Positions 9,862 through 58,030 are shown, counted from the stretch's first letter. The stretch: 64,000 nt of DNA from Escherichia virus TH34 (MT446407.1), one strand, 5' to 3'. The notes: a model not told the origin generated them from the letters alone. Numbers and translations are program-made.

Positions 9862-10338
9862 TTATTTGCTCTCGTCCGCTCCCTCCCCCTTTTCAGCGTC
9901 CTCAGAGTTGTCTTCTTCTGGAGGTAGCACATCTGCACCTAATGCTCCAGTCAAGAAGTCCTTGATTTGTGCGTTCAATGAATCTTCATTAATTACATTC
10001 TCTTCCTCAATCTTAATCTCAACAGAAGCTGCCTTCGGATATACCAGATCTGCAACTTTACTTGCAGCCTTGAATCTAAGATCAGGTGGAATATTTGGAT
10101 CTTCATAAATTTGAATCAACACTTCATCAGGGGACAGATGACTTGAAGCAACTCGGTCCAACATGAGCTGTGTCAACTTACCTCTACTACCTTTGGGTCG
10201 TCCGAACTTATTTCCCTTTTGGAACTTCCCTGTGCTTGGCTCCATACCACGGTTTTCCAATTCATCAGTTACACCGGGTAATCTTCCTGTAACCTCAGCT
10301 ACCTGTGCAGGCGTGAGTTCTCCTTTTTCTCCAAACAT
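9862..10338 (-). CDS. putative terminase small subunit
   Basis: 158 aa immediately upstream of terL; basic GRPKGSRG DNA-binding-like motif; acidic C-terminus. Confidence 0.4.
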   Translation of the reverse strand: MFGEKGELTPAQVAEVTGRLPGVTDELENRGMEPSTGKFQKGNKFGRPKGSRGKLTQLMLDRVASSHLSPDEVLIQIYEDPNIPPDLRFKAASKVADLVYPKAASVEIKIEEENVINEDSLNAQIKDFLTGALGADVLPPEEDNSEDAEKGEGADESK

Positions 10339-10403
10339 CTTATACTCCTTCTACATTATCGTTATAACAAAAAGCCTCCCACTAGAGGAGGCAACACCTT
10401 TTA

Positions 10404-11063
10404 TTAATCTACATTACCTACGTGTAGGTTGAACAAAGTCTGGAGAGCTACAGTTTCACCTTCCCAAGTCACTGGAACAGATTTGTCATTCTCTACATCA
10501 AAAGAAGAGGACGCCAAAAATTTTTTGTATTCTTCAAGCTCGGGGTCCAGAGCTTGTTCACTAGCATGTACCCACGTAACTACTTCATTACCTTCTTCAT
10601 CAATTACTACATTACGTGACCATTGATCTTTTGAATTTAAATAATTATTCAGAGCTTCATACTCGGCTTCTTCAATCATCTCAATCATTTCACGGGCATA
10701 GTCCGGTAGGTGTGCATGTTTGTCAGCTACATACGGAACAACTTCTAAATTGGATGGACACTTGCGTTTAACTTCTTTTGCTACAGTGAAATAATCTTTC
10801 ACATCTTTAGCTTCTGTACGAGGAATCAAACCTTCCCATAGTTCACGGGTTGAAGGAGCATGACCATACACAGAACCATGAGCCAGTTGTTTTACCATCT
10901 CAACTCGGGATTTACCTCCAGTAGTTTCATGAACACGATTCAGATAGAGAGTGTCCTCTGATAAAGGACGGAGATTACCATTGTAAACAACCTCGCCTTT
11001 ACATCCCATGTTCTCGTAGATTGCATTCAGTGTAGTAGTTCCTGTCATATTGTTATTCATCAT
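10404..11063 (-). CDS. hypothetical protein
   Basis: 219-aa ORF with good coding character; no confident motif. Confidence 0.45.
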   Translation of the reverse strand: MMNNNMTGTTTLNAIYENMGCKGEVVYNGNLRPLSEDTLYLNRVHETTGGKSRVEMVKQLAHGSVYGHAPSTRELWEGLIPRTEAKDVKDYFTVAKEVKRKCPSNLEVVPYVADKHAHLPDYAREMIEMIEEAEYEALNNYLNSKDQWSRNVVIDEEGNEVVTWVHASEQALDPELEEYKKFLASSSFDVENDKSVPVTWEGETVALQTLFNLHVGNVD

Positions 11064-11346
11064 TCTCTCCTTCAGTATTTACGTTATCACTATAACGATA
11101 ATCTTTAAACGTTTCAGCCTTGTAACTCACAAAGCATCTCATGTACAACCAGCCCAATGAACTAATGTCCATCGTAGCATCAAAATCTTCATCATCGTCT
11201 AGGTCTACTAATCTACCCAAACAACTCAATACCTCCTCCCCTTCATCAAATACAAATGCACATCTTTCAGTGCGGAAGTAAGGAAGCAGCTCTGATAAAA
11301 AGTCTAGAATCATTTTATATCTCCTCTGATATAAGAGAGTGATCAA
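11053..11346 (-). CDS. hypothetical acidic protein
   Basis: 97-aa ORF with a run of acidic residues (DLDDDEDFD). Confidence 0.35.
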   Translation of the reverse strand: MITLLYQRRYKMILDFLSELLPYFRTERCAFVFDEGEEVLSCLGRLVDLDDDEDFDATMDISSLGWLYMRCFVSYKAETFKDYRYSDNVNTEGENDE

Positions 11347-12450
11347 CCCATAAAGGCTTACTCATCTAAAGGCCCACCCATCTAATCTCTGAAGTAAAGG
11401 GGACTCCATAAAGGCTACCCCACATTAAGGCATACCCATAAAGGCCATGTCATGTTAAGGCCTATCCACCCATTTACTATTCCTCACCTTACCACAGTCT
11501 GCACATCTCCATGTACTCTTGTAATAAGCGTGTAATCGTTCATCACCTCTTGATATCCGGATTGGATAGTATTCGTGATTACATTTGAATTGCTTAACTA
11601 GTAACTTAATCTTCCACATAAAGTTGTTCCTCATACTTAAATCCACAACTAACGTTGGGGCATATAGTTATATATAAGAGTTTAAAATTCTGATTTGACC
11701 GAGTGGGGCTAGCCCCTCCGAGAGTGTTTTGGTAAAAAGGGGAGTCCTCATTTAAAAAAGGGTTATTACCGATGCAATCGCCTTTAGGAAATCAATCAGC
11801 CTTTAAGCTCTAAGCCTTGCCCTACCTGCTATCAGTGGCATGCCTACCCATAAATACCCTACCCATTGATATTAGACATGCATTATTTACCCATGTATAT
11901 CTAACCAGTGATTTCCTACCCGTATTTCTCTTACTCATGTTGAGAAGGGATGAAAGGCTAGACTCTGATGTACTGTACAGGCATACTAATAGAAGACTAT
12001 AACTAACCGGTATTAATAGTAACATAAGCATTAGTAACCTATATAAACTATATCGTTGATGACAATCCCCCAAGTGCTGACCAACTGCTTTGCAGGTTGG
12101 CCACGGTTTAATAGTAATAACTTATGTTAATGTTTCATGAGTGGATTATTGATGTATGTATCATTAGACTGGTATTAGTTTCTTTTATCATTCTTTTAGG
12201 TCTGTTTCTTTTTCAGCGTGTCTTTATTCTTTTTCTTTTAGTTGTTTGAGTAAATTATTTGACTGGTAATTAACTCCCGCATGGTCTGGTCTGTCATCTG
12301 TAACTAACTTACATTATACCCTACCCGTTTCCCCTTCCTCGTTAGGCTTCTTACCCATTGGCTAACCTATGCGGCACGTTCTACCCATCTGTCGTTGCCG
12401 TTGGTCTGCTACCCGTTCTATAAGTGTTATTAAGTAGTAAGCTGTATCTC
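11345..12450. repeat. repeat-rich divergent intergenic region (candidate genome terminus, pac site or regulatory hub)
   Basis: multiple short direct repeats: ccataaaggc x3 (11347-11450), (C)TACCC(A/G)T about 10 copies (11820-11960 and 12290-12420); AT/T-rich stretch 12100-12260; separates leftward late genes from rightward early genes. Confidence 0.35.
11455..11646 (-). CDS. small Cys/His zinc-finger-like protein
   Basis: 63 aa; C-x-H ... C-x2-C pattern shared with three small + strand ORFs at 22806-23383. Confidence 0.4.
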   Translation of the reverse strand: MDLSMRNNFMWKIKLLVKQFKCNHEYYPIRISRGDERLHAYYKSTWRCADCGKVRNSKWVDRP

Positions 12451-27490: not shown

Positions 27491-28708
27491 ATGTTCCCTG
27501 TAACACTTCAAAGCTGGAAAGAATCAGAAGACGTTGTAACCGTCTGGCCCCCTTGTTATGGTTTCCTGAAAGCAGGTTACTATCAGGGTGGTGATTATGA
27601 CGAAGATGAAGATGGTGATCCTGATTACTATAATACATACGATAGTAATTTCGGCTGGAATATCCGCATCAAGGTGTGGAGTGGAAATATGATGGTTCGT
27701 CAAGGCACTGCTGAAGAGAACGTTCTTGAGAATATGTTGCCTATGTCTGAAATCAAGTATATCTGGAACTCCGGAACACATCTTCCAGCTCACGGTGTAA
27801 GACGTTATGGTGATACTGAATATATCGCTACTCAGTATTTCCGTGAAGGGTTAGAAAATGAAGACCCTCGTCCTCCTTCTCATGTGGAAACATGGGCAGA
27901 AGAAAACAACCGTCCTGATATCACTGATCGTGTTGTTATGGAAACCTTTGCAGCATTCATGGATAAAGACCTTGACTCATGTCTGGTATGGCATGAAGTA
28001 GGGTTCATGGGTGTTTGTACTGATGGCTGTCCCGCTGATCGTGCTCTGTTCTATCTGATGTTGAATCGCACATTCTATACAGATGATGAAAAATCTGCTG
28101 TGTATGAAATGTTGAACAAGATGTATAAGAAGGGCTGGTCTCCTTTAGCCTCTCTTGCATTCAGCCGACTGATCAACTCTTCAGTGGATGTGTTCGGTAA
28201 CGAACGTGTTGCTTTAACAGGGAATGATTACGATTCCTGTATCTTCCAAGCATCTCTGTATACAGTGGGTGTTGGTAGTACGATGATTGAGCCTCGCCAG
28301 ACCAAATGGCGACAGTGTGAATACACTGAAGGTGAAGGTCATCTTCGTGATGAAGACTTCTCCAGTCTGATCTATCGCGGTGAAGGTGTTCGTGATTGTC
28401 GAGTGAACAACTCGATGTTCTTGCCAATCCTTTTGCCTCAATATTGCCATCTGTCGGAAGATACCCGCCCAATCATCACAGAAAAGTCACTCTTGGTTGA
28501 ATTTATCCGAGAGGTGGCTGAATCTGAAACATCTTTTGCTAAAATTGTGTTCGGTTATAACTGGAACAATGAAACAGCTTCAGCTCGAAGCTACAACATG
28601 TATAACATTATCAGTAGTATGTCCAATGGACTGACAGGTAGTAATTATACAGTACGTCCCTCAGAAGAGTGGGAAAACATTTTGGAAAAATTATTCTTCA
28701 ATAAATAG
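27491..28708 (+). CDS. hypothetical protein (cluster member, unknown function)
   Basis: 405-aa ORF with an acidic N-terminal patch; tightly packed with downstream cluster genes. Confidence 0.55.
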   Translation: MFPVTLQSWKESEDVVTVWPPCYGFLKAGYYQGGDYDEDEDGDPDYYNTYDSNFGWNIRIKVWSGNMMVRQGTAEENVLENMLPMSEIKYIWNSGTHLPAHGVRRYGDTEYIATQYFREGLENEDPRPPSHVETWAEENNRPDITDRVVMETFAAFMDKDLDSCLVWHEVGFMGVCTDGCPADRALFYLMLNRTFYTDDEKSAVYEMLNKMYKKGWSPLASLAFSRLINSSVDVFGNERVALTGNDYDSCIFQASLYTVGVGSTMIEPRQTKWRQCEYTEGEGHLRDEDFSSLIYRGEGVRDCRVNNSMFLPILLPQYCHLSEDTRPIITEKSLLVEFIREVAESETSFAKIVFGYNWNNETASARSYNMYNIISSMSNGLTGSNYTVRPSEEWENILEKLFFNK

Positions 28709-28716
28709 AGGCGAAT

Positions 28717-29667
28717 ATGTCAATCTCCGCATCGACTGCTCCGGTAACACCAGCAGAGAACTTTGGTGAGTCAGTGTTCAGAGGGCGAGCTTGTTTTGGT
28801 ACTTTCAACTGTCAGCATATGTATTCTGTTACAGACATTAATGGCGACAGTATCAATCTCTCAAGCCTTCGTGATAGAACTTCAGAAATTGGAGTTATTA
28901 ACTTCTGGCCTCACAATTTTTATGGCGTACCAGCTAAAGATATCGAAAGAGCTTTAGTTGAAGCAACAGACATTTTTAACTCAATGTCTTGCTATAAAAA
29001 CATGTTCTCTGTCACTTCGGTGAACTCAGTTGCCGTGAACCTTCGAGACCACCCAGCAGACAAGGTGTTTACTGGATTAATGACCCTCCGGAGTTATCTG
29101 GATGGGGATTTTATGGGAATGGAGTTCCTTCAGGAAGGCGTTCAAGACAAGGAAGAGTTGCTCAAGCGACAACGAATCGGCTTAGCTTTACGCTTGGCTG
29201 GTTTAAGTCGTAACTTCTTTGGTCGTTGGGATTATTCACATGATGTGGATACTGATGATGAATCAGCAGCGACCTATTTTACCGGTGAAATGAGTGCAAT
29301 CGCATTCTTGCCACTGGTCTGTTCAACTGATGAATTTTCTGAAAACGTATGGGTTCAGAATGTATTTGGTGTTGACGATAACAGAGATGGTTATGTACGA
29401 AACCATAATGACGGAGTTCTCCGCCGTATGGCTCGTCGTCGTGACCAAGACCCTGACTATTACGAGAGTATGAGTGAGTGGTTGCGTCTCTGGTCAATGT
29501 GTGCAGGCCATAAACGTGAAGTATTAGATCAGCGTATGGACAGAATTACTGTTCACAGTTTTATTGAACGCTTGATGCAAGCAGTACCTTCCTCAATGAC
29601 ACCAGAAGAAGCTGGTGCCCGTGTTGTTTCCCTTTTTGATGAACTTGTGGAGTATTACAATGACTAA
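28717..29667 (+). CDS. hypothetical protein (cluster member, unknown function)
   Basis: 316-aa ORF; overlaps the next start by 8 nt. Confidence 0.55.
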   Translation: MSISASTAPVTPAENFGESVFRGRACFGTFNCQHMYSVTDINGDSINLSSLRDRTSEIGVINFWPHNFYGVPAKDIERALVEATDIFNSMSCYKNMFSVTSVNSVAVNLRDHPADKVFTGLMTLRSYLDGDFMGMEFLQEGVQDKEELLKRQRIGLALRLAGLSRNFFGRWDYSHDVDTDDESAATYFTGEMSAIAFLPLVCSTDEFSENVWVQNVFGVDDNRDGYVRNHNDGVLRRMARRRDQDPDYYESMSEWLRLWSMCAGHKREVLDQRMDRITVHSFIERLMQAVPSSMTPEEAGARVVSLFDELVEYYND

Positions 29668-30466
29668 GCGTGCTTTCCTTATTGGTTCTGACCCTGAAAT
29701 GTTTGTTCGTACTGCTTCTGGTGTTATCACCTCTGTGGCTGGTAAGCTGGGCTGTTCTAAAGATAACAAAATCGATCTGGCCCCTGATGTTCGTCTTCAA
29801 GAAGACAACGTTCTGGCTGAATTTGATATTAACCCACAGAAAGGGTTCGAAGCGTTTGATGATAACATCCAGCGTGGTATTGATCTGACCAACAAAGTTC
29901 TTAATGAACGTGGTATGGAAGCTGCACTTGGGATTAGTTCTCATGTGTACACTTCTGAAGAGCTGCAATCATTCCATCCATCAGCCTTTGTGTTTGGCTG
30001 TACTCCTGATTTCAACGCCTTCACTGGTCAGAAAAACCCATCTCCGGTAGCGACAGACAAAGGTCTGCGTACTGCTGGCGGTCACGTACACCTCGGTGTT
30101 GCAGGGTCTTTGGAAGTAACTCGACAGACTCAGATGATGCTGGGTGTTCTCTGTGATTACTTCCTGTCACTTCCAGCAGTAATTATGGATAAGGACACTC
30201 GTCGTAAAGAGCTTTACGGCAAGGCATCTGCTATTCGTTATAAAGATTATGGTATTGAATACCGTTCTCTGTCGAACTTCTGGATTGGTGAACAGTCCAC
30301 TCGTAAGTTTGTTTACGATCAAGTTGATAAGGTTATTCAGGGCTGTGATATGGAAATTCTCATGTCTCTGCACTCCCGTCTGCCTATCGAAAAGCTTCAC
30401 AACATCATCAATAGCAATGATGTTAAAGAAGCGGATAAGTTCTCCTCTAAACTCCAGATTATCTAA
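29660..30466 (+). CDS. amidoligase-like protein (glutamine-synthetase-like COOH-NH2 ligase fold), paralog 1
   Basis: about 268 aa from ATG 29660; acidic motifs GSDPEMF and EFDINP, GGHVHLG (H-x-H) and GIEYRSL, the last two echoed in ORF 31099 (STHVHMD, VEFRIS). Confidence 0.4.
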   Translation: MTKRAFLIGSDPEMFVRTASGVITSVAGKLGCSKDNKIDLAPDVRLQEDNVLAEFDINPQKGFEAFDDNIQRGIDLTNKVLNERGMEAALGISSHVYTSEELQSFHPSAFVFGCTPDFNAFTGQKNPSPVATDKGLRTAGGHVHLGVAGSLEVTRQTQMMLGVLCDYFLSLPAVIMDKDTRRKELYGKASAIRYKDYGIEYRSLSNFWIGEQSTRKFVYDQVDKVIQGCDMEILMSLHSRLPIEKLHNIINSNDVKEADKFSSKLQII

Positions 30467-30475
30467 GGTGTTATC

Positions 30476-31102
30476 GTGAGCCTGTTAAGAGATTTTCAGC
30501 ATTATTATTGCGGAACATGGATTGCCCAACGTGCAGAACGAGGGATTAATTTACCTCTTTATGTACTCAACGTGAACCAAGCAAACCGCTTTGGAGAAGA
30601 TGACTTCTCTCACGAAGCAGAAATGGCCTTAACTTTTGAAGTTGAACGCTGGTCTAAGAACGCCGAAGGGCAGTTTGAACGACAGGTTGTTCAGGGCATT
30701 CCTGTGTTTGATCAAAGCCTTATTCTGGAATCTCCAGATGTGGGATACTTACAACACGGCAACAACATGGTAAGCTGGACTCATATCAACCCTGTTCGTC
30801 AGCGAGCTAAGGGTCTGATGGGGAACAAATTACGTGGTGCACCTCCTTCAATGGGTCGTTCGATTCCGGGAGAGCTGGTGTATAATCTGTTTAATCCTGA
30901 CTTCGAAGGTCTGGTTACTCGCTTCATCTACATCAACCCTGTCGATGGTAAAGTTTATTACAAAGGGGCACTTGTAGGTCAAGTTGATCTTTCTGCTGGT
31001 TACGGCGACAATGGTCGTCAATCTTTAAATCTTCTGGAGAAGTTCAAGCATATTTCTTCAGATCTGTCATCATATAATGTAGAGTTGGTGGAAACGTTAT
31101 GA
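30476..31102 (+). CDS. hypothetical protein (cluster member)
   Basis: 208-aa ORF; stop overlaps the next start. Confidence 0.5.
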   Translation: MSLLRDFQHYYCGTWIAQRAERGINLPLYVLNVNQANRFGEDDFSHEAEMALTFEVERWSKNAEGQFERQVVQGIPVFDQSLILESPDVGYLQHGNNMVSWTHINPVRQRAKGLMGNKLRGAPPSMGRSIPGELVYNLFNPDFEGLVTRFIYINPVDGKVYYKGALVGQVDLSAGYGDNGRQSLNLLEKFKHISSDLSSYNVELVETL

Positions 31103-32199
31103 CAACCGTAGCACAAGTTTTTGGATACCGTAATGCTCGTCTGGCTGAGCCGCACCCAAGCATCGCTTTTCAGTGTGGTATTGGCATCGAGCTGGAAGTT
31201 GAAGGAACCTCTGAAATTGATGCAGACCTTTGGGTTTGTACTGAAGATGGTTCACTTCGTGATGGCTGTGAGATGGTTTGTGCACGGCCTTACAACGGTG
31301 TAGAATTGCTTAGTGCTATTAACAATCTGAGTGAAGCAGTACAAGACTCTGAAGCTGAAGGGACTTGGCGCTGCTCTACTCACGTTCATATGGATATGCG
31401 TGACGCTGATAGTAACATCCTGAAGAAAGTAATTCTTGGATGGACGTTCTATGAAAAGATGATGTTCAAATGTTCTGGATACCATCGCTATCGTAGCAAC
31501 TTCTGTCCTGCCTTTGCTGTTGTTCAAGCACAGGTAATGAATGCTTCCGCAGCGTTCAACCGAGATGGTGAAGCCTTCTTCAATACTCTTGTTAATAGCT
31601 GGGACAAGTACACCTCCCTTAACCTATTACCTCTGGCTCAGTTTGGTTCTGTTGAATTTCGTATCTCAGAGCCAAAGTGGAAGAAAAGCCAACTCCTTAA
31701 TCTGGTCAACCGCTTCTTAGTTCTCAAGAAACTGGCTGTTGAGTATGCAGATTTGGATAATGAAGCATATGTTGAGAAACTGAATGAGCTACGCTTCGCT
31801 CCTATGATTCAGTATCTGCCTCTGGACTACACACCTAATGATGATGACCTGACTGGTGGTTATCGTTTGGCTCGTGATATTCTGTTCTGTCGTGAACATT
31901 CTGTTACTCTGGTTGGTCGTGTTCGTGTACAGCAGACCGGACCTGATGGTGAAATCCTTATCAACTTGCGTGATATGGGTGACTTCTACGGTTTCTTGGG
32001 ATATGTACGTGGTAATGCCAACTCTATTTATGAAGAGATCATGACCTATTACACCCCTCAGATTGAAAACACTCGAATCGCAACGGTTCGTGAAATTCGT
32101 CACATGTTTGCTCTGATGCGTGAATCAGGTAGCAGTGATGATAACGTCACTGGTTACATTCCAGACCATCTGGAAATGCAATTAGAACGACTGCTGTAA
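31099..32199 (+). CDS. amidoligase-like protein, paralog 2
   Basis: 366 aa; GIGIELEVEG (E-x-E), EDGSLRDGCEMV, STHVHMD, VEFRISEP motifs consistent with glutamine-synthetase-like amidoligases. Confidence 0.5.
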   Translation: MTTVAQVFGYRNARLAEPHPSIAFQCGIGIELEVEGTSEIDADLWVCTEDGSLRDGCEMVCARPYNGVELLSAINNLSEAVQDSEAEGTWRCSTHVHMDMRDADSNILKKVILGWTFYEKMMFKCSGYHRYRSNFCPAFAVVQAQVMNASAAFNRDGEAFFNTLVNSWDKYTSLNLLPLAQFGSVEFRISEPKWKKSQLLNLVNRFLVLKKLAVEYADLDNEAYVEKLNELRFAPMIQYLPLDYTPNDDDLTGGYRLARDILFCREHSVTLVGRVRVQQTGPDGEILINLRDMGDFYGFLGYVRGNANSIYEEIMTYYTPQIENTRIATVREIRHMFALMRESGSSDDNVTGYIPDHLEMQLERLL

Positions 32200-32276
32200 C
32201 ACAATGGGCGCTCTGATAAAGGGCGCATTTAAAGGTTAATTAGATGAAAGGGTTTACCCTTCAGGTGGATTAGAAA

Positions 32277-34310
32277 ATTTGTGGTATCGTATTAGCTGGG
32301 GGCAACATGACCTCCACAGACTTAGACGTATTCAACCAGCTTCTGTATGCTGGAGTCTTCCGTGGTCAGCACTCAACTGGTGTGTTCGGTCAGCGTAAAG
32401 GTGATGAAAAAGTATTTTCTTATAAAGAAGCACTTCCTTCCTATGCCTTCATGCTCCAGACAGGGTACACGAATCTTACTAAGGGGCTTACGAACTATGT
32501 AGTTCCTCCATCGTGGATTGTTGGTCATAGCCGACATGCCACACGTGGTGCGGTCAATGCTCGAAATGCTCACCCATTCTCTCATGGTGACATTACTCTG
32601 GTTCATAATGGTACACTGTTAGATCAGGAACTGTTACCAGATCATAAGAATTTCGAAGTTGATAGCGAAAACATCTGTCATTCAATCAACACCATCGGTG
32701 CAGCAGAGACTATCCAGAAGTTGGATGGTGCGTTCACTTTAATCTGGCATGACGCCAAAGACAATACTCTGCATATCATTCGTAACGATGAACGTCCTTT
32801 CCATCTGGCCCGTTGTGGTCTAGATTGGTTTGGTGCTTCTGAAGAAGATATGTTGATGTGGATTCTTAATCGTTCCAAGTCACACAAGAACCGTATCAAT
32901 GATCACTTTGAGTGTAAAGTGGGAACTGAATACATCTTTGATTTGTCTGGCAACCGTATGACTCTGACTCAAGAGGTGGAGCACAAGCTTCCGGTTTTTA
33001 CGGTAACGAGTCGCTGGGGCGGCTATTACTCGAACTCTTCTCTGTATCAGAACCAACAGACAAACAAATCAAGCAGCAGCACAAGCGACATTTACGGAAA
33101 CAAAGACGACAAGCCCGGCGTGACAAGCGGAGACATTCGTCGTCGTAAAGCGATTGAAGATCAGAATAAACTGGCTGCCGATCGTGGTCTTCCGTATCGT
33201 CGTGACGGTCGTGTGGATATCATTCCTCATGAGTTCCACGCTTATAACAACACTGACCGTGGTAAGATGGTTGGTTATATTTATGATGATGCTGCTCAAG
33301 AGTATGTTGAGGGTGATGTTCATAATGTAGCCAAGAGTGAATACTTGAAGGCTCTCGAAAACCCAAAGGTAGTGTATCGCGGGACAGTTGCTTGTATCTC
33401 CGAAGTGGACAGTATGATTCGCCTCGTACTCACTTCAGGGCTGTTTGTTGATGCTACCGATAAGGAGCCTCAAAGCACTACCGCTGATTTTGATGATGAT
33501 ATCCCTTTTGATTTAGAAGACTCCTTCATCACTAAGAATGGTGTGGAAGTCACCCGTAAGTTCTGGGAATCACATTCTCATGGTGATTGTGGCGGTTGTG
33601 ACAAGCATATTGAATGGAAAGATGCTAAGAAAGCTGTGTTCGCTTACCAAGCATATTGGCATCCGGCCTGTTTCGAAGCATTGTCCAAACCGTCTGAAGA
33701 AGATGAAGACATTCCTTTGGGTGTCTGTGCTGTATGTGGCAATGTTAAAACTGATTTCGAGTTTGATAACGAAATGAGTAAACTTCGTGGTGAAGATATT
33801 TGTTATGTCTGTGCCAAAGAGATCAAAGACAAAGTGACTAACACTACATTGTCTGAAGGTTACATTTGGACTAAAGCAGTTGACACAACCAACCCACGTC
33901 GCCCTGAAGTAGCAGTTCGTGTTGATCAGCGTATGCTTAGCCGGATGATTGTAATGGTCAGCTCAGCTAAACGTTCTGGTGACATTGAATTGTCTGATGT
34001 TCCAAATTCTTATTTGGAAAAACGTGGTGGTGATACCTATGCCATCTCTGTTTATGGTCCAAAGAATGCCCCAAAGGAGGTGCCCGCTGAGAAAGCGGAA
34101 ACATTTCCAGAAAAGCAAACAACTCTCCGAAAAACAGTTGTCAGTTACGACGGACAACGAACAGCTGAGTTCACAAAAGCCCTCTGGACTTCAATTGGGT
34201 TTTGTGCGGTCTGTTATAAACAAATTCCGTGGCGTGATGCAGAAATTTGCTCACTGAACAAAGAAAACAGGGTGATCTGTAATTCAGATTACTGTAAAGG
34301 TAAACATTAA
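32277..34310 (+). CDS. class-II glutamine amidotransferase (Ntn-hydrolase)-like protein with C-terminal zinc-ribbon region
   Basis: GAT-II motifs RGQHSTG, LVHNGTL, DGAFTLIWHD, IRNDERPFHL; the canonical N-terminal C-G-I-V is encoded at 32280 just upstream of the first ATG (32307), preceded by ATT (32277) and SD AGGTGG (32263-32268); C-terminal half has several C-x2-C pairs. Confidence 0.7.
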   Translation: MCGIVLAGGNMTSTDLDVFNQLLYAGVFRGQHSTGVFGQRKGDEKVFSYKEALPSYAFMLQTGYTNLTKGLTNYVVPPSWIVGHSRHATRGAVNARNAHPFSHGDITLVHNGTLLDQELLPDHKNFEVDSENICHSINTIGAAETIQKLDGAFTLIWHDAKDNTLHIIRNDERPFHLARCGLDWFGASEEDMLMWILNRSKSHKNRINDHFECKVGTEYIFDLSGNRMTLTQEVEHKLPVFTVTSRWGGYYSNSSLYQNQQTNKSSSSTSDIYGNKDDKPGVTSGDIRRRKAIEDQNKLAADRGLPYRRDGRVDIIPHEFHAYNNTDRGKMVGYIYDDAAQEYVEGDVHNVAKSEYLKALENPKVVYRGTVACISEVDSMIRLVLTSGLFVDATDKEPQSTTADFDDDIPFDLEDSFITKNGVEVTRKFWESHSHGDCGGCDKHIEWKDAKKAVFAYQAYWHPACFEALSKPSEEDEDIPLGVCAVCGNVKTDFEFDNEMSKLRGEDICYVCAKEIKDKVTNTTLSEGYIWTKAVDTTNPRRPEVAVRVDQRMLSRMIVMVSSAKRSGDIELSDVPNSYLEKRGGDTYAISVYGPKNAPKEVPAEKAETFPEKQTTLRKTVVSYDGQRTAEFTKALWTSIGFCAVCYKQIPWRDAEICSLNKENRVICNSDYCKGKH

Positions 34311-34321
34311 GAGGTGAAGTT

Positions 34322-34555
34322 ATGGAAGTTCGTAAATTGATGTTGGATAACGTTGTAACCACTCGACGTATCCCAATGACAAGCACAGGATGTGATAACC
34401 TTCGAGCTATTCAGAAATGGATGCAAGAAGGTATTGGGGGACTGGTTAACTCTCCAGTTGAAATCCCTTTCCCAACCGTTATCAATAACGTGTTGGCTGA
34501 CTATGTGAAATTGAAGGGGATTAAAGTTGAGCCTCATGTCAAGCAAGGGAGCTAA
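34322..34555 (+). CDS. hypothetical small protein
   Basis: 77-aa ORF with RBS gaggtgaag. Confidence 0.4.
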   Translation: MEVRKLMLDNVVTTRRIPMTSTGCDNLRAIQKWMQEGIGGLVNSPVEIPFPTVINNVLADYVKLKGIKVEPHVKQGS

Positions 34556-34757
34556 GCCTCACCTGACAATGCTGGAGTATCAACAACTCCGACTTCAACA
34601 ACTGGTAACGGAGCAGCGAAAGCTGTATCCGTTTGCTTTTAACCTAATTGATTCACCAAGCGATGACCAAGAAGACGAGATGTTCTCCAAGTATTGGGAA
34701 ATCGAAGTTAAAATTCAATCCTGTCGTAACGAAATTCTTAAACTAAAAGGTATCTAA
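34527..34757 (+). CDS. hypothetical small protein (start uncertain)
   Basis: 76-aa ORF overlapping the previous one; alternative start near 34569. Confidence 0.3.
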   Translation: MSLMSSKGAKPHLTMLEYQQLRLQQLVTEQRKLYPFAFNLIDSPSDDQEDEMFSKYWEIEVKIQSCRNEILKLKGI

Positions 34758-34759
34758 AA

Positions 34760-36007
34760 ATGACTACTCGTATCCGTGTTCTTCCGTATGGCCCTTCTGA
34801 TTCTGTTAACGCTCTGGTAACTGCCATTAGTGATACTATCCGTGATGAACGTATCAACGCTAACGTAATGGGTCTTCTTTCTGAGAACAGTCGCTGGCGT
34901 TCTCGTGAGGGTGATGTGGTTGTGAACTACGGGAACCGCCGCTATCCTGAATCCTTCTTTGGTTCTGCAACTGTTCTTAACCGTACCGCAGCCTTACACA
35001 TGGCAGCGAACAAACGTCGTGCTTTCAGCGTGATGGACCAAGCAGGTGTTAAAACTGTTGAGTATACAGATGTTCAAGAGATTGCTCAGGAGTGGTCAAA
35101 CTCTGGCAACATTGTGTATGAACGTCATGAACTGACTGGTCACTCTGGTTCGGGTATTATTGTTGTTGAGCCTCGTGATTCAGTTGGTCAAGCTGAACTG
35201 TACACCAAAGGTATTCAAGGCCCACGTCGTGAATGGCGTGTCCATGTGTTCAAAGGTGCAATCACCTATGTTCAGAAGAAAATTCGTCGTAATGGTTATC
35301 GTGAAGACCCTAACTATCGTGAAGATGTTCGTAACCATCACACTGGTTGGGTTTACTCAAGCTCTTTTACGGATGTTCCGAACGATGCATCTCTGATCAA
35401 CGCAGTGAAGGCCGTTGAATCGATGGGTCTGGATTTTGGTGCAGTTGATATCATTACTAAAGGTCGAGAAGCATGGGTACTGGAAGTTAATACAGCACCG
35501 GGCCTGACTGGTACAACTCTGGATACCTACCGTCACAACATCCTTGAGTTTGTTAAAGCTCAAAACCCTCTCTATACTCCTCAGTATAAAGTGGTTTACC
35601 AGACTCCTGTTGAAGCTCCAATTGAAGATGGAGATGGTGAATTGGTTGCTGACAGTGAAAGTGCTGATGATGAAAACTTCGCACTGGAAGGCCAAGTCGC
35701 ACAGCCGGTTGATTCAGTGGATGTAGTTCCTGAAGAAATGCAACTGGAAGGTCAGATGAATACTCAGACAATCCGTAATGCACCTACTGGTTATGTGTTG
35801 TCTCGTGGTTACTGGATTGCAGATATTCGTCATGTTCATAACAACCTGCAACCTAATGCAATGTCTGCCAATGTCATTCTGTTCTGCGATGGTCGTAACT
35901 TCTACCGCAGTGGCTGGAACGTTCCGGTTCATCCGCAACAAGTCCACAACCCTCGTAAGTTAGAGTCTGTAACTGTTGAAGGTAGTGAAGTGGCAGTAAC
36001 TCTGTAA
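34760..36007 (+). CDS. ATP-grasp superfamily ligase
   Basis: 415 aa; GHSGSGIIVVEP (Gly-rich loop), EWRVHVFKG, DFGAVDIITKGREAWVLEVNTAPGLTG motifs typical of RimK/glutathione-synthetase-like ATP-grasp enzymes. Confidence 0.7.
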   Translation: MTTRIRVLPYGPSDSVNALVTAISDTIRDERINANVMGLLSENSRWRSREGDVVVNYGNRRYPESFFGSATVLNRTAALHMAANKRRAFSVMDQAGVKTVEYTDVQEIAQEWSNSGNIVYERHELTGHSGSGIIVVEPRDSVGQAELYTKGIQGPRREWRVHVFKGAITYVQKKIRRNGYREDPNYREDVRNHHTGWVYSSSFTDVPNDASLINAVKAVESMGLDFGAVDIITKGREAWVLEVNTAPGLTGTTLDTYRHNILEFVKAQNPLYTPQYKVVYQTPVEAPIEDGDGELVADSESADDENFALEGQVAQPVDSVDVVPEEMQLEGQMNTQTIRNAPTGYVLSRGYWIADIRHVHNNLQPNAMSANVILFCDGRNFYRSGWNVPVHPQQVHNPRKLESVTVEGSEVAVTL

Positions 36008-36027
36008 TTAAACAAAAGGAATTTGTA

Positions 36028-36270
36028 ATGTTGTCTATCGAAGATTTGATCAGTCGTGGAATGACCGAACAAAAAGAACCTCTGATTGTTGGTTCTCGTA
36101 AAGCTATTAACCAACTCTGTGAAGAGTTTGGAATCACAAACAAGAGAATGATTGGTAATCAGTTCTCTGCAATTGTCACCTTCCTTAAACGAGGTGATAA
36201 ATATTCAATGGAATGTGTTGAGCGTATCATCGCAATTGCACAAGAAGATAAGGGAGTAACAACTCTGTGA
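36028..36270 (+). CDS. hypothetical small protein
   Basis: 80-aa ORF. Confidence 0.4.
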   Translation: MLSIEDLISRGMTEQKEPLIVGSRKAINQLCEEFGITNKRMIGNQFSAIVTFLKRGDKYSMECVERIIAIAQEDKGVTTL

Positions 36271-36452
36271 ATAAATACACAATCATGTTTCGTACAGTAA
36301 ACTCAGAAGGTAATATTCAATCTCTAGATATTCAAGCAGATCGCTTTGAATCACTTGGAACAAGTGTTAACTTCTTCCGAGGAGTAGAGTTGGTAGGTAC
36401 ATTCCAATCTGACGTGTTGACTGGTGTGATCAAACACTTCGAAGTAGAATAA
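36267..36452 (+). CDS. hypothetical small protein
   Basis: 61-aa ORF. Confidence 0.35.
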   Translation: MNKYTIMFRTVNSEGNIQSLDIQADRFESLGTSVNFFRGVELVGTFQSDVLTGVIKHFEVE

Positions 36453-36517
36453 TTTGCTTTAGCCTCTTCGGAAGAGGGGGCTAGTTCAAATTTAACTGAA
36501 ACACAAAAGGTAATATA

Positions 36518-36949
36518 ATGTCTGATAAAGTATTAGTAGCAACTTACGGCAGCTTGAGAAAAGGTCAACACAACCACGCTATCAATGCTCGTGCCGGTGG
36601 TGTGTCTATTGGTGAGGGTTGGACAGTGAACAACTGTAACCTGTATCAGTATTGCACAGCATACTTCCCAAGTGTGTCTCTGGAGCACGACAGCAATGGC
36701 AAGCCTGTTCGTGTGGAAGTATTTGAAACAACTCAAGCTGGTTTGGAAGGTCCGTATGACGGTCTGGAAGGTTATCGTGGTAAAGACAATCCATACACTT
36801 TCTACAATCGTACACTAATTCCAGTAGTGCTGGATAGTGGTGAAACTGTGGAAGCATGGATTTATCATATCGACGAAGAACAAGATGTTCTGGTTGAATC
36901 TGGCGACTGGACAGCGTATCTGGCAGGTGATCAGGATGACAGTAACTGA
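36518..36949 (+). CDS. gamma-glutamyl cyclotransferase-like (AIG2/GGCT fold) protein
   Basis: 143 aa; N-terminal ATYGSLRKGQHNH (YGSL motif) and downstream DGLEGY with a candidate catalytic Glu. Confidence 0.7.
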   Translation: MSDKVLVATYGSLRKGQHNHAINARAGGVSIGEGWTVNNCNLYQYCTAYFPSVSLEHDSNGKPVRVEVFETTQAGLEGPYDGLEGYRGKDNPYTFYNRTLIPVVLDSGETVEAWIYHIDEEQDVLVESGDWTAYLAGDQDDSN

Positions 36950-39513: not shown

Positions 39514-40950
39514 ATGATTAAGATTCCATTGTCTGAATTAAACCTTCAAGAAGGAGAAGCCCTCAGTGTAGGGCTTGACCTGATTCGTAATTTGATCAGA
39601 GATAACGTAGTCCCTGATGGTATCTATCCTGTTATTGCGGGTGGTGCTATCCGTGATACGTTCTTCCAAAATCGAACTCCGAATGACGTTGATATCTTCC
39701 TAGTTCAAGGAGGATTTCGTTGGAACACTCGTCAGGAAAACAGCCCTGCTAACGTGGGTAATGCTGCACTGTTCCTTGACAACTTCTTGTCTTGGACAGA
39801 GAGTAAAGGGCTTCAAACTACATCTCGCCTAGTTCAGCCTGTTAGTGGGACAAATTACGCTGAAGCACTTTTCACTTTCCAAGAGATTTTGGAAGTGGAG
39901 ATTGACGAAGTGAAGATTCAGATGATGATTAACCTCCCTCTGGATATGGATACTCTGAGAGGTCGCTTCCCTATGATTTGTCAAGGGTTTATGACTCTCG
40001 ATGATATGTATGTGTCGAACGAAGGTATGTTTGCAATGGCATATACTAATGATATCCCTGTGGTGACAAGTCGTGACATGAAGTATGTCCACAAAAAGTG
40101 GCCTGAAGCAACAGTTGCAGTTTACAGCAGTTCTACTGAGTATATGCACCTTGCAATGGGAGCTTTTGGTGAACCAGAAGTTCATCTGATCAGTGATTTA
40201 GTTGGGCCTATGGCTGGTGTAAACTTGTATCAGAATCAACGTCGCCACTACACCTTGAAGATGATGGAAACTGTATTAAATATTCCTCAGGAAGCGGGTC
40301 GTAACTATCTGGATGAAGAGGTTAACCTACAGACAGATTGGTCTAGTGAATTAACCACTATTGGTGTTGAAGCAATTACGCAGCCTTGGACTCCGGGAAC
40401 TGACAGACGTGACTCTTGGCAACAGACAAGATTCGCAGCACCTGCTACAGAGGCACCTCGTGATACTTTCACTGGTAGTTTTGGTAGTGCCCGTTCTTCT
40501 GGAATGGGTACTCGTACATGGCACGTCACTCATGATACAGGTGGAGTAACTGTTCGACCTGCTTCTTCTCCATCTATGGGTGATTTGCAGCGTTCCCGTC
40601 GTTCATGGGAAACAGTTAGCTCTGTTGTTCAGGGTCTACGTTCTAGTGATATAGAACGTGTAGAAGTTGGTGATTTGCCAACCCCTACAGAAGATCGGGT
40701 AGCAGCTATAGCGGCTCGTGAAGCTGCTCGTACTGGCTTTGCATCTTTAGCTAACGACGCTCGACCTGTTGGTCGTCGTAATGGTCTGGCTCATTCTAAC
40801 ACTGCACTTGGTGCAGAACTCCGAGCAACAGCTCGTGAATTAGTTGGTGAACTTGATAGTAACTTAGCAGGTGTTACGCTGACTCGTGAAACAGCTCGTA
40901 ACATGATTAACAATTTGACATCATCTGTACAAGGAAACAGAAACTCATGA
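39514..40950 (+). CDS. Pol-beta superfamily nucleotidyltransferase (CCA-adding / poly(A)-polymerase-like head) with low-complexity C-terminal half
   Basis: 478 aa; GGAIRD...DVD signature near N-terminus; C-terminal about 200 aa rich in S/T/R/A. Confidence 0.5.
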   Translation: MIKIPLSELNLQEGEALSVGLDLIRNLIRDNVVPDGIYPVIAGGAIRDTFFQNRTPNDVDIFLVQGGFRWNTRQENSPANVGNAALFLDNFLSWTESKGLQTTSRLVQPVSGTNYAEALFTFQEILEVEIDEVKIQMMINLPLDMDTLRGRFPMICQGFMTLDDMYVSNEGMFAMAYTNDIPVVTSRDMKYVHKKWPEATVAVYSSSTEYMHLAMGAFGEPEVHLISDLVGPMAGVNLYQNQRRHYTLKMMETVLNIPQEAGRNYLDEEVNLQTDWSSELTTIGVEAITQPWTPGTDRRDSWQQTRFAAPATEAPRDTFTGSFGSARSSGMGTRTWHVTHDTGGVTVRPASSPSMGDLQRSRRSWETVSSVVQGLRSSDIERVEVGDLPTPTEDRVAAIAAREAARTGFASLANDARPVGRRNGLAHSNTALGAELRATARELVGELDSNLAGVTLTRETARNMINNLTSSVQGNRNS

Positions 40951-41480
40951 GTCTTTTAGGTTCTCAAGAACTACACAACGTTATTGATAATGGCTTTTTA
41001 GATGCGGAGCATAAATATGTTAACGCTGCTAGCGTGGATATCCGTATTGGTGATACTATCCTTGTTGAAGAACAGGCTGACGGCATTGTTGACATTGATG
41101 CTAAAGAAAATCTCAAGTGGAAAGAAGTGAAAATCCCTGAAGATGGTATTGTCATCACTCCGGGACAATTCTTCTTAGCTCACTCAATGGAAGAGTTTAA
41201 CCTTCCAGATAACATCTCAAGTCTGTTTGTACTTCGCTCCTCAATGGCTCGTTGTGGTTTGAACCACTTACATGCTGGTTGGGCTGATGCAGGGTTTAAC
41301 AGCAGTAAGCTGACCTTTGAATTCCATAACGTTACCCACAACCACAGCTTACGAGTTCGTGCTGGGATGCGTGTTGGTCAGATGGTTATGTTTGAACACT
41401 CTCACGCTGGTGATGATTCCTATGCAGTGAAGGGTCGTTACAATGGCAGCAATGGGGTAGTTGCATCTAAAGGTGTATAA
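40947..41480 (+). CDS. dCTP deaminase / dUTPase-superfamily protein
   Basis: 177 aa; N-terminal LGSQELHNVIDNGFL and SVDIRIG pattern resembling Dcd-type enzymes. Confidence 0.5.
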   Translation: MSLLGSQELHNVIDNGFLDAEHKYVNAASVDIRIGDTILVEEQADGIVDIDAKENLKWKEVKIPEDGIVITPGQFFLAHSMEEFNLPDNISSLFVLRSSMARCGLNHLHAGWADAGFNSSKLTFEFHNVTHNHSLRVRAGMRVGQMVMFEHSHAGDDSYAVKGRYNGSNGVVASKGV

Positions 41481-42156: not shown

Positions 42157-42504
42157 ATGAAACAGGAGAGAGTTATGTTAGATTTGAGTAAAGTGGCCCC
42201 GCCATCTGAAGAGATTAGCAAAGCTAAAGTTATGCAGCAGTTCTATCATCGTGATATGCTTGGTCGTTATATCAAGAATCGTGATGTTGTTGCATGGTCT
42301 ATTGGAAATCAAGGTTATCTTCTCAAAGTGTTGCAAGTTACTGGCTCAACAGCCAAGCGAGTCAAAGTCTATGACCCTGAAATGGGGCGTTCTAAGTCTG
42401 TAGACCCACAGAATTGCATTGTTATTACCCAGCAGGTCATGGACAACATTGCTCGTAACGTAGCCAATTCAACCAATTTAGAAGGAGAGACTCCTAATGC
42501 ATAA
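42157..42504 (+). CDS. hypothetical protein
   Basis: 115-aa ORF. Confidence 0.4.
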   Translation: MKQERVMLDLSKVAPPSEEISKAKVMQQFYHRDMLGRYIKNRDVVAWSIGNQGYLLKVLQVTGSTAKRVKVYDPEMGRSKSVDPQNCIVITQQVMDNIARNVANSTNLEGETPNA

Positions 42505-43063
42505 TAATGTCTTCGACTTACCTGAACTAACACGAGTGGGTTCTAGTAACCCATTCTCTACAACTGACTCCTCTATCTCTCGTCTTGAGGGAATGAATAA
42601 ACTGATCAGCGGTAACAGTCTAGAGCACATCCTATGCGGTGTGCAGGCTAACCTTGAGCTTCTACACATCAAAGCAAAGAATTACCACTGGAACGTCTCT
42701 GGAGCTGGTTTCCAAGGTGTTCATGGTATGTTCGATGAATTAGAAGACTATGCTCGTGAAACAGGAGACCGAGTAGCTGAGCGAATGCGTTATCACTGTA
42801 TCAAAGTGGATGCAACAGCTAGTAGCTATCTTAGTTGTGCTTGGTTCAGAGAAGGTAGTGCTGATCTCGACATGGACGGTATGCTTTCCGACATGTGCAT
42901 GACTCTGATGTGTATCATTGAAAAGATGGACGAGTTTGATTCAGACTTGTGCACTTATCCAGTAGACCAGAGTATGCTTCAAGAAATTAATGAAGGTCTT
43001 GGCAAGTTCTGTTACTTCGTCAAGAGCAACATGTCCCACTCTAGTGGCGATGTGTCTTACTAA
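42497..43063 (+). CDS. Dps/ferritin-like protein
   Basis: 188 aa; LELLHIKAKNYHWNVSGAGFQGVHGMFDELEDYARETGDRVAERM closely follows the Dps helix pattern (HW..G..F...H..FDE....D..AER). Confidence 0.55.
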   Translation: MHNNVFDLPELTRVGSSNPFSTTDSSISRLEGMNKLISGNSLEHILCGVQANLELLHIKAKNYHWNVSGAGFQGVHGMFDELEDYARETGDRVAERMRYHCIKVDATASSYLSCAWFREGSADLDMDGMLSDMCMTLMCIIEKMDEFDSDLCTYPVDQSMLQEINEGLGKFCYFVKSNMSHSSGDVSY

Positions 43064-43980: not shown

Positions 43981-44454
43981 GTGATGTTATACGGTAATTT
44001 GGAATACAACCCTGAAACTGGAGACTTCTTTAGGAATAGCAAAAAGCTAGGAGGAAAGAGGAGCAAGTATGCAACCCTTCGGTTTCAAGGTAAAGTAAGA
44101 AAAGCACATGTGGTTGCTTGGTTTATTTATTATGGGGAGTGGCCTACTTCTCAAATAGACCATGAAGATGGTAATAAGAGGAACAACTCAATCTCTAATC
44201 TTCGATTAGTAGACACCTCTACTAACTGTCACAATCAGTTTGGTGCAAGATCTTCAAACATACAATCAGGTTTTCAAGGGGTTAAAGTTGTTAAGTACAA
44301 ATCAGGCACTATTCGATATAGAGCAGTTATTTGTATTAATGGCAAAGATATACACCTAGGGATGTATGGAACTCCTGAAGAAGCACATCAAGTCTATATA
44401 GAACGGAAAAAGGAACTTTTACGTGAACGAACAACTAACAGCAACATTGATTGA
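43981..44454 (+). CDS. HNH homing endonuclease
   Basis: 157 aa; H-x-(D/E)-G-(N/D)-x-x-N-N motif DHEDGNKRNNSISNLRLV. Confidence 0.65.
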   Translation: MMLYGNLEYNPETGDFFRNSKKLGGKRSKYATLRFQGKVRKAHVVAWFIYYGEWPTSQIDHEDGNKRNNSISNLRLVDTSTNCHNQFGARSSNIQSGFQGVKVVKYKSGTIRYRAVICINGKDIHLGMYGTPEEAHQVYIERKKELLRERTTNSNID

Positions 44455-47767: not shown

Positions 47768-48262
47768 ATGATTCCGATTTCCGACTACTTGTCATACGAC
47801 CTGGATACTGTTTTATTGATTTTTACCGAATCTAGCTCTAAAGGTAAGAAATGGAATAAATCACATCCGGGAAAAGTGGCAGGGGCTGTTGATGAAAAAG
47901 GGTATATCAGAGTTTACTTTGAAGAGAGGAGATGGAAAGCTCACAGACTTATAGCTTCTGTGCTCATACCTAACCCTGAAAATAAACCACAAATTAACCA
48001 CATCAATGGTAACAAAAGTGATAATAGGTTAGAGAACCTAGAGTGGGTCACTGGTCATGAAAATATGCAACATGCTTTTTCAACAGGTCTTAATGTTGGT
48101 AAAGAGAGGGATGCTAATGGAATGACTAAAATCAACACATTGGATGTGGAGAAGATCAAGAGTTTATATGTTAAAGGCTCTACCACTCATGGAACAAGAG
48201 CACTAGGTAAGATGTTTGGCGTAAGTCACACAGCTATCCGACATGCTTTAAGCTCAAGTTAA
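47768..48262 (+). CDS. HNH homing endonuclease with AP2-like DNA-binding region
   Basis: 164 aa; NHINGNKSDNRLENLEWVTGHENMQH. Confidence 0.65.
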   Translation: MIPISDYLSYDLDTVLLIFTESSSKGKKWNKSHPGKVAGAVDEKGYIRVYFEERRWKAHRLIASVLIPNPENKPQINHINGNKSDNRLENLEWVTGHENMQHAFSTGLNVGKERDANGMTKINTLDVEKIKSLYVKGSTTHGTRALGKMFGVSHTAIRHALSSS

Positions 48263-57399: not shown

Positions 57400-57591
57400 A
57401 TGGGTAAATTTGACTATCGTTCGTATGATGAAAATTCCTCTAATCGTGAGTCTCGTAAAGACCAGAAGATTAAACACCAAGCATTTGATCGTCGTACAGG
57501 ACGTATCCCTCGTGCTGAAAAAGAATCACATCGTATTAACAAACGTATTTGGGAAGATGCTGACATGGATGTAGGTTATGGAGAAAGCTGA
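57400..57591 (+). CDS. hypothetical small basic protein
   Basis: 63-aa ORF. Confidence 0.35.
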   Translation: MGKFDYRSYDENSSNRESRKDQKIKHQAFDRRTGRIPRAEKESHRINKRIWEDADMDVGYGES

Positions 57592-58030
57592 GAAAACTAG
57601 ATGCTCTTTTAGTTATAACCCGGAGACTGGATTGTTCTCCGGACTTTCTATATACACTGACAGAGATGGTTATCTGTACACTTTTATTGATAGAAAGAAT
57701 TTCCGCTTGCACCGATTGGTTTTTCTTTTAGAAGGTGAAGATATTTCTGGAAAACTTATAGATCACATTGATGGTGATAGGCAGAATAATAAAAGAAATA
57801 ACTTAAGGCTTGTAAACTCTCAAGAGAATACCTACAATAAAAGAGTAGGAAGAAACAATACTACCGGACATAAGGGAATTACTCAAGAGCCAAATGGTAA
57901 GTGGAGAGCTAGGATTTCTGCAAACAAGAAAAGATATTCTCTAGGAGTGTTTGATTCTTTAGAAGAAGCTGTTGCTGCTTTAAGTGAAGAGAGACAAAAA
58001 CTACATGGAGAATATGCAAATGAAGGCTGA
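57578..58030 (+). CDS. HNH homing endonuclease with AP2-like region
   Basis: 150 aa; DHIDGDRQNNKRNNLRLV and GKWRARI. Confidence 0.65.
   Translation: MEKAEKTRCSFSYNPETGLFSGLSIYTDRDGYLYTFIDRKNFRLHRLVFLLEGEDISGKLIDHIDGDRQNNKRNNLRLVNSQENTYNKRVGRNNTTGHKGITQEPNGKWRARISANKKRYSLGVFDSLEEAVAALSEERQKLHGEYANEG

Follow-up and report, generated by a model that had tools for sequence, protein, structure and literature searches.

The 64,000-nucleotide stretch of DNA analyzed here (the window) comes from Escherichia virus TH34 (MT446407.1), and all positions are counted from its first letter. Between 27491 and 36949 lies a cassette of genes predicted to encode three ATP-dependent ligases, a class-II glutamine amidotransferase and a gamma-glutamyl cyclotransferase (GGCT), along with the conserved proteins A, B, C and DUF7195 (Table 1). 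The phage is a coliphage of the Gordonclarkvirinae (phiEco32/ECBP2-like) and falls in the ECBP2/Bas88 branch. DNA identity across the 9.5 kb of the cassette region amounts to 99.2% with Escherichia virus TH42, 98.1% with Bas88 and 95.8% with ECBP2, and the region matched 98 phage records. The records of Bas88, ECBP2 and LUZ24 already carry the same product names, as do those of near-identical phages.

An initial annotation, made from the sequence alone, had described the region as a run of tightly packed + strand open reading frames (ORFs). All of the listed ORFs were confirmed at their coordinates and on that strand, and the close packing was borne out, with overlaps of 8, 4, 20, 4 and 14 nt and remaining gaps of 2–77 nt. 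The amidotransferase gene is the next gene after that of the PF12224 ligase, and the cyclotransferase gene lies 4.3 kb downstream. Directly downstream of the whole cassette are the replication genes (primase/helicase). A scan for sigma-70 promoters returned 17 sites versus 36 in shuffles, i.e. fewer than in shuffled sequence, and no exact match to the middle-promoter motif of phiEco32 was found near the cassette; for these reasons we make no claim about transcription units.

Table 1. Genes of the 27491–36949 region and the number of phage records with a tblastn homologue of each enzyme
Feature	Position	Strand	Family or basis of assignment	Records with homologue (of 50,697)
Protein A, 405 aa, first cassette gene	27491..28708	+	PHROG member; no Pfam/NCBIfam match	
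Protein B, 316 aa	28717..29667	+	PHROG 13102	
COOH-NH2 ligase, GS/GCS superfamily, 'phiEco32-like COOH-NH2 ligase type 2'	29660..30466	+	PF14395, PHROG 3815	310
Protein C, 208 aa, GTG start; stop overlaps amidoligase start	30476..31102	+	Conserved PHROG	
Amidoligase (Amidoligase_2), GS/GCS superfamily	31099..32199	+	PF12224, PHROG 7469	298
Class-II (Ntn) glutamine amidotransferase, middle region, 3 C-terminal Cys clusters/zinc ribbons	32277..34310	+	GATase_6	330
DUF7195 small protein, 77 aa	34322..34555	+	PF23825, E 1.4e-18	
Small ORF, 73 aa, between DUF7195 and ATP-grasp genes	34536..34757	+	Position only	
RimK/MptN-like ATP-grasp ligase	34760..36007	+	PHROG 2599, E 6e-172	315
phiEco32 gp79 homologue	36028..36270	+	80% identity to phi32_79	
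Small 61-aa ORF, corresponds in position to phi32_78	36267..36452	+	Position	
Gamma-glutamyl(amine) cyclotransferase-like, AIG2/GGACT fold	36518..36949	+	PF06094, PHROG 2520	165

Domains were assigned with Pfam, NCBIfam and PHROG profiles, in a scan of ~35 window proteins. The amidoligase-type, class-II amidotransferase, ATP-grasp and GGCT assignments of the initial annotation all held in these profile hidden Markov model (HMM) searches. The first glutamine synthetase (GS)-like ligase matched PF14395 (E 3.5e-8, 33.5 bits versus a cut-off of 25) and the second matched PF12224 (E 1.7e-6, 28.5 bits versus a cut-off of 22). In alignments of five lineages, the motifs D11-P-E13, E48-D-N, H142-x-H144 and E200-Y-R202 of the PF14395 ligase are invariant, as are E31-x-E33-x-E35, H95-x-H97-x-D99 and E186-F-R188 of the PF12224 amidoligase. 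Three motifs (acidic, His-x-His and Glu-x-Arg) are thus common to the two proteins and occur in the same order. Pairwise BLAST, on the other hand, detected no similarity between them. The two Pfam families differ, although we take them to be members of one superfamily in Pfam. Given the different families, the lack of BLAST similarity and the limitation of common features to three motifs, the two ligases are probably paralogous at the superfamily level at most. Hence, the type of both proteins was correctly called, while the term 'paralogous' overstated their relationship. Sequence searches of the PDB with both ligases gave no match. In a collection of 5.8 billion proteins, homologues of the PF14395 ligase came mostly from metagenomic contigs of no more than ~170 kb; the few source names were those of phages, metagenome-assembled genomes or flagged contaminants, and no cellular gene context was found, the one context examined being phage-like.

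The amidotransferase has an unusual start. Its gene begins with ATT at 32277, 7 nt 3' of the Shine-Dalgarno sequence AGGTGGA, and the product opens with M-C-G-I-V. Because of this start codon, a plain ORF scan begins the gene at 32307 and loses the catalytic Cys1. Gene phi32_83 of phiEco32, which has no in-frame ATG nearby, shows the same ATT start, and the two proteins are ~67% identical; in GAP52, the start is ATG. Cys is the first residue after the initiator Met, and M-C-G is also seen in LUZ24, GAP52 and, at the corrected start, Privateer. The annotated start of the Privateer gene (10134-11936) lies 13 codons upstream of M-C-G-I-V, and the true start is probably M14, exposing the Cys as the N-terminal nucleophile (Ntn).

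GATase_6 was matched with an E value of 9.4e-15, which passes the Pfam threshold. Residues Cys1, R29, R86, T89, N111-G112 and D129 are invariant in four lineages, and in a comparison of the four-lineage profile with the glutaminase domain 1xff, R86, T89, N111-G112 and D129 align to R73, T76, N98-G99 and D123 of GlmS. Since the glutamine-binding residues of GlmS are invariant, the pocket is predicted to suit L-glutamine or a gamma-glutamyl amide with a free alpha-amino and a free alpha-carboxylate group. The Cys-rich tail noted initially was confirmed: its Cys residues form three C-terminal clusters, and in two of these the CxxC motifs are paired (CxxC at 438/441, 484/487 plus 509/512, and 643/646; further Cys at 465, 658, 668 and 673). 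C-terminal CxxC...CxxC zinc ribbons are present on the amidotransferase of every lineage compared. No fused synthase (acceptor) domain was found in residues 240-677, where only a weak LIM/zinc-ribbon match was seen, and therefore the acceptor enzyme, if any, would act in trans. The full-length protein had no sequence match in the PDB; GlmS, PurF, AsnB and EgtC were matched only when a profile built from four sequences of the amidotransferase domain was used.

The protein encoded at 34760-36007 appears to be an ATP-grasp-type ligase, with the ATP-grasp domain in residues 1-270, then an acidic linker and, at the C-terminus, a further domain of ~70 residues; residues 340-409 match PHROG 20552. 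Its Mg/ATP motif (GAVDI...LEVNTAPGL) aligns to RimK structures in the PDB. The best family matches are alpha-L-glutamate ligases, and matches to D-Ala-D-Ala ligases are weak. Pfam RimK fell just under its cut-off (20.7 versus 21 bits), and the NCBIfam matches were far below theirs: MptN (6e-9), 35 versus 350 bits; RimK family (7e-7), 28.8 versus 143 bits; S6 ligase, 24 versus 331 bits. These scores do not support membership in RimK proper. The cyclotransferase matched PF06094 (GGACT, gamma-glutamyl amine cyclotransferase) at E 7.6e-16 and 59.2 bits, versus a cut-off of 22.8, over profile positions 2-119 of 120. A YGSL substrate-binding motif (Y10-G-S-L13) can be read from the sequence, and an L-E-G-Y motif occurs in both this protein and LUZ24 gp22. 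No solved GGACT structure aligned well enough to establish equivalence of the catalytic Glu.

Proteins A, B and C, initially listed as three large unknowns, indeed matched no Pfam or NCBIfam profile. They are not incidental, as all three belong to conserved PHROGs and are members of the cassette by synteny. Protein A contains the invariant residues C22-Y-G-F, W92-N, D183-R, D248, H284 and R286, and this abundance of invariant polar residues (Cys, His, Asp, Arg, Trp) raises the possibility that it may be an enzyme. Its predicted model is confident and has no match in the PDB. Foldseek searches of predicted viral structures with the model of A returned uncharacterized proteins of ~290-320 aa from Proteus, Aeromonas and Cronobacter phages, with two matches per genome in GAP52 and LAh_8. 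The GAP52 matches are 314 and 290 aa long, lengths that fit gp029 and gp028, which occupy the positions of B and A just upstream of the COOH-NH2 ligase gene. Two motifs, C-[YF]-G and PAD[KR]xxxxLM, occur in the same order in A and B. Non-circular HMMs (target sequences from Privateer and LUZ24 were excluded from the alignments) linked B to gp093 of Privateer (1e-4) and, weakly, A to gp094 of the same phage (6e-4). The two short motifs, the weak HMM cross-matches and the paired Foldseek matches suggest that proteins A and B have diverged from each other and have one fold in common. The comparison of the two families by hhalign was not significant and lends this no support.

For protein C, the non-circular HMM reached Privateer gp091 (8e-26) and LUZ24 gp17 (8e-5). 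The predicted structure consists of SH3/Tudor/KOW-like beta-barrels, and a fold search returned generic SH3, Tudor and KOW barrels only. A flexible loop, R108-Q-R-x-K112-G, is conserved and includes an invariant Lys, in a part of the model that has low confidence. The gene for DUF7195 always lies directly after that for the amidotransferase; its homologue in Privateer is gp088 (E 1.6e-12), and it holds the same place in a metagenomic contig. The 73-aa ORF is annotated at the same position in Bas88 and in phiEco32 (phi32_81), and neither it nor the 61-aa ORF matched any family in the profile searches.

One gene within the region stands apart. The homologue of gp79 sits between the ATP-grasp and cyclotransferase genes. 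In phiEco32, gp79 displaces sigma-70 and activates the phage sigma factor (PMC8948821, PMC12276001). By its similarity to gp79, we assign 36028-36270 to transcription control, outside the pathway. The initial view of the gene set as one system therefore holds for the enzymes and for A, B and C, and not for this gene.

Homologues of the four large enzymes are found in near-equal numbers within each lineage (Pseudomonas, ~120; Escherichia, 92-93; Aeromonas, 9-11; Proteus, 8; Salmonella, 7; Cronobacter, 6). The lower count for the cyclotransferase (Table 1) is partly due to the limited sensitivity of tblastn for LUZ24-like copies. Gene order is identical in phiEco32, LUZ24, Privateer, GAP52 and one metagenomic contig: A, B, COOH-NH2 ligase, C, amidoligase, amidotransferase, DUF7195, (small ORF), ATP-grasp, ..., cyclotransferase, primase/helicase. 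Comparison of gene neighborhoods across related phages, which had been put forward as a check, thus shows that the enzymes and their four accessory proteins (A, B, C and DUF7195) stay together in fixed order across distant phage lineages and are inherited as one unit. The closest parallel is the cassette of phiEco32 itself, which has the same five enzyme families in the same order and the same place upstream of the primase/helicase genes, with 41-80% protein identity; nothing essential differs, the window representing the ECBP2/Bas88 branch. Peptides of the ATP-grasp protein, the amidotransferase, the cyclotransferase and protein C have been detected in crude lysate preparations of SU10. We considered and rejected the idea that the enzymes are virion components, as the SU10 sample was precipitated with polyethylene glycol rather than purified on CsCl, and the ejection proteins are gp20-24.

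The cassette is already known in comparative genomics, having been described in 2009-2013, and its annotation is correct and not new. Citing papers credit it to Iyer 2009 (Mol Biosyst) and Hardies 2013 and name it the 'peptidoglycan modification cassette'. These papers list its components as a gamma-glutamyl amidoligase, a second amidoligase, an ATP-grasp protein, a glutamine amidotransferase and a gamma-glutamyl cyclotransferase, and its carriers as RIO-1, phiEco32, 7-11, PA11, tf, MR299-2, LUZ24, PaP3 and CW02. Because the phage studied here belongs to the Gordonclarkvirinae, its copy is the type example of the published cassette. The region had initially been called a candidate uncharacterized system, and its function is indeed still only predicted; the cassette itself is no new discovery, with a Pfam family named after phiEco32. 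Literature searches found no experimental test of any cassette gene. Our analysis adds that A, B, C and DUF7195 are constant members of the cassette, that the amidotransferase has an intact glutamine-type pocket and an ATT start, that A matches nothing in the PDB and that the gp79 homologue does not belong to the pathway.

What might such a cassette do? Judging from their conserved motifs, all of the enzymes (the three ligases, the Ntn glutaminase-type hydrolase and the cyclotransferase) appear to be active. By established enzymology, a gamma-glutamyl group must have a free alpha-amine to be acted on by a class-II amidotransferase or by a GGCT/GGACT enzyme. As both enzyme classes have this requirement, the pathway very probably passes through a terminal gamma-glutamyl intermediate. 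We therefore favor a reading in which this conserved cassette of the early/middle region of podophages carries out ATP-dependent amide chemistry centered on a gamma-glutamyl group with a free alpha-amino group, and we hold this reading to be about equally probable to be right or wrong. The initial proposal, in which amide linkages of a gamma-glutamyl or peptide-like kind are built and trimmed by a pathway so far predicted only computationally, agrees with our analysis and with the literature consulted.

In the scheme we envisage, one GS-like ligase would form a gamma-glutamyl amide on an amine, and the remaining ligases would extend or amidate the product, with the ATP-grasp enzyme most likely adding glutamate. 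The amidotransferase would either act in trans as the ammonia source of a ligase, the role that GatD has for MurT, or hydrolyze the gamma-glutamyl amide, as does EgtC. Finally, the cyclotransferase would remove the gamma-glutamyl group as 5-oxoproline, in the manner of BtrG in butirosin synthesis. The acceptor we favor is a small peptide-like product or tag that would be built on, or passed on by, the accessory proteins, over a remodeled peptidoglycan stem. Protein C, with its invariant Lys and conserved flexible loop, would be the best candidate for a carrier or adaptor. Given the presence of the zinc ribbons, protein C and DUF7195, we speculate that the process is assisted by a carrier or adaptor rather than being free-solution metabolism.

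Use of a gamma-glutamyl handle is a known pattern, seen in ergothioneine synthesis (EgtA/EgtC), butirosin synthesis (BtrJ/BtrG) and gamma-glutamyl amine metabolism. EgtA/EgtC resemble the phage proteins in pairing a ligase of the GS/GCS superfamily with a stand-alone Ntn domain lacking a cis synthase. EgtC was among the matches of the phage amidotransferase (E 2e-3 in the PDB and 6.5e-3 in NCBIfam), more weakly than GlmS or PurF. In contrast to the ergothioneine system, however, no homologues of EgtB, EgtD or EgtE were found, and the phage amidotransferase bears zinc ribbons. In butirosin synthesis, a gamma-glutamyl group is attached for protection by the ATP-grasp enzyme BtrJ, on a carrier protein, and BtrG, which has the GGCT fold, removes it. 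The combination of ATP-grasp and gamma-glutamyl cyclotransferase in the phage cassette is reminiscent of this pathway and may likewise point to a transient gamma-glutamyl handle. Here, the differences are that homologues of the acyl carrier protein, decarboxylase and acyltransferase are lacking and that the phage ATP-grasp protein is nearest to alpha-L-glutamate ligases. RimK, MptN and CofF are the best family matches of the ATP-grasp protein and have the C-terminal Mg/ATP motif in common with it, but the scores lie far below the equivalog cut-offs and RimK lacks the extra C-terminal domain of the phage protein. MurT/GatD provides a parallel of another kind, in which a carboxylate is amidated by an ATP-dependent ligase and a glutamine amidotransferase that acts in trans (PMC3267633). 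GatD is a class I enzyme with a catalytic triad and MurT is a Mur-type ligase, whereas the phage amidotransferase is of class II and the phage ligases are GS-like or ATP-grasp.

Several points weigh against a pathway centered on a gamma-glutamyl group. Literature searches found no substrate, product or phenotype for any cassette gene in any phage. The addition of glutamate by the ATP-grasp protein is only a lead, as its matches lie far below curated cut-offs. GlmS, PurF, AsnB and EgtC all match the amidotransferase weakly, such that sequence does not decide between an ammonia donor and a gamma-glutamyl hydrolase. Protein A looks like an enzyme of uncharacterized chemistry, and this could change the whole picture. 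The carrier role of C is speculative, based as it is only on a conserved loop modeled at low confidence and on gene order.

The published alternative is modification of peptidoglycan. Here, the ligases would build unusual linkages in the stem peptide and the amidotransferase and cyclotransferase would degrade or recycle it, for superinfection exclusion or in preparation for lysis. This reading comes from the papers citing Iyer 2009 and Hardies 2013, which propose that the wall is altered to block superinfection or prepare lysis. Peptidoglycan does contain a gamma-glutamyl linkage, and MurT/GatD shows that it can be amidated by a ligase plus a glutamine amidotransferase (PMC3267633). In Privateer and GAP52, the cassette has an endolysin gene 1-2 kb upstream, and the weak matches of the ATP-grasp protein to D-Ala-D-Ala ligases point in the same direction. 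However, the best matches of this protein are alpha-L-glutamate ligases rather than Ddl, and no Mur-ligase, Fem or transpeptidase-type domain was found. Nor did any cassette protein match an envelope or cell-wall family in the profile searches, which did not cover signal peptides or membrane segments. As to the chemistry, the amidotransferase keeps the Asp and Arg that would hold a free alpha-amino and alpha-carboxylate group, and the cyclotransferase needs a free alpha-amine. The D-isoglutamate of the stem peptide is N-acylated and has the D configuration, and hence stems suit neither the pocket nor the cyclotransferase chemistry. No experiment backs the peptidoglycan reading, and we regard it as unlikely.

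Protein tagging, comparable to pupylation or to the action of RimK/LysX, is another option. Glutamate or a short peptide would be attached to a lysine or the C-terminus of a phage or host protein, and reversal or priming of the tag would fall to the cyclotransferase and amidotransferase. The GS-like ligases of Pup systems act on proteins, RimK-family ATP-grasp enzymes act on protein C-termini, and GGACT enzymes cleave epsilon-(gamma-glutamyl)-lysine. Moreover, the parts of the cassette that do not look catalytic, namely the zinc ribbons, the SH3-like protein C and DUF7195, suggest a macromolecular partner. Yet the small cassette ORFs lack a conserved Pup-like C-terminal Gln or Glu, their C-termini being QGS, IKP and YFE across lineages, and the active site of the amidotransferase seems suited to a free amino acid rather than a protein-bound residue. 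In the cryo-electron microscopy and mass spectrometry study of the SU10 virion that was searched, no isopeptide is mentioned, and the only modifications named are those of routine search settings. Overall, we find tagging of proteins improbable.

Lastly, the cassette, including A and B, could install an amino-acid or peptide-type modification on phage DNA or its precursors and so cause the resistance to restriction-modification that has been published, without explanation, for Gordonclarkvirinae. The window retains 24 EcoRV, 10 EcoKI and 103 EcoP1 sites and, as these sites remain, site avoidance fails to explain resistance to the three enzymes. Also in keeping with such a role are the place of the cassette directly upstream of the replication genes, the enzyme-like character of A and B, which show no known fold, and the co-occurrence of amidoligase and amidotransferase domains with thymidine hypermodification genes in viral metagenomes (PMC8989533). 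But among the ~35 window proteins, no dUMP hydroxymethylase, TET/JBP, 5-HMUDK, aGPT-Pplase, DpdA or glycosylase domain was found; instead, the phage has genes for a ThyX and a dCTP deaminase of the ordinary kind. We know of no ligase of these families that acts on DNA bases. The same cassette occurs in phage groups without reported DNA modification and, in one LUZ24-like phage that carries it, 11 of 16 restriction enzymes cut the DNA. On balance, both a role of the cassette in DNA or nucleotide modification and a resulting restriction resistance seem very unlikely.

Site loss is evident in the window. CCWGG (8 observed versus ~150 expected) and GATC (138 observed versus ~240-300 expected) are strongly avoided, and sites for PstI, SacI, NcoI, ScaI, KpnI and SmaI are absent. 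The restriction resistance of the phage group is only partly explained by such loss. Outside the cassette, 39514-40950 encodes a 478-aa protein that is named 'nucleotidyltransferase' or CCA-adding enzyme in relatives and that had no Pfam or NCBIfam match; the BASEL work proposed this protein and the adjacent dCTP deaminase (40947-41480) as possible DNA-modification genes. Downstream of the dCTP deaminase gene, a ferritin-like domain (E 2e-7) is encoded at 42497-43063. Three HNH_3 homing-endonuclease-like ORFs (43981-44454, 47768-48262 and 57578-58030), two of them with AP2 DNA-binding domains, interrupt the run of genes for replication and nucleotide metabolism. In the early region, a 137-aa ORF (25785-26198) has a ProQ/FinO RNA-chaperone domain, at 27.8 bits versus a cut-off of 27. 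In the 7-11/Privateer lineage, RNA repair genes are found near the cassette, with RnlB RNA ligase 2 inside it in GAP52 (2378-3343) and RtcB upstream of it in Privateer (23-1024); this may be a coincidental clustering in the early region.

Present in ~300 genomes, including LUZ24 and Kuravirus therapy candidates, the cassette is among the most widespread multi-enzyme modules of virulent podophages of Proteobacteria, and for some 15 years it has had no tested function. Solving its product would give a function to at least four families, A, B, C and DUF7195, as well. Once found, the product would bring to light either a macromolecular modification not seen before or a new route by which the chemistry of the host is rewired by phages.

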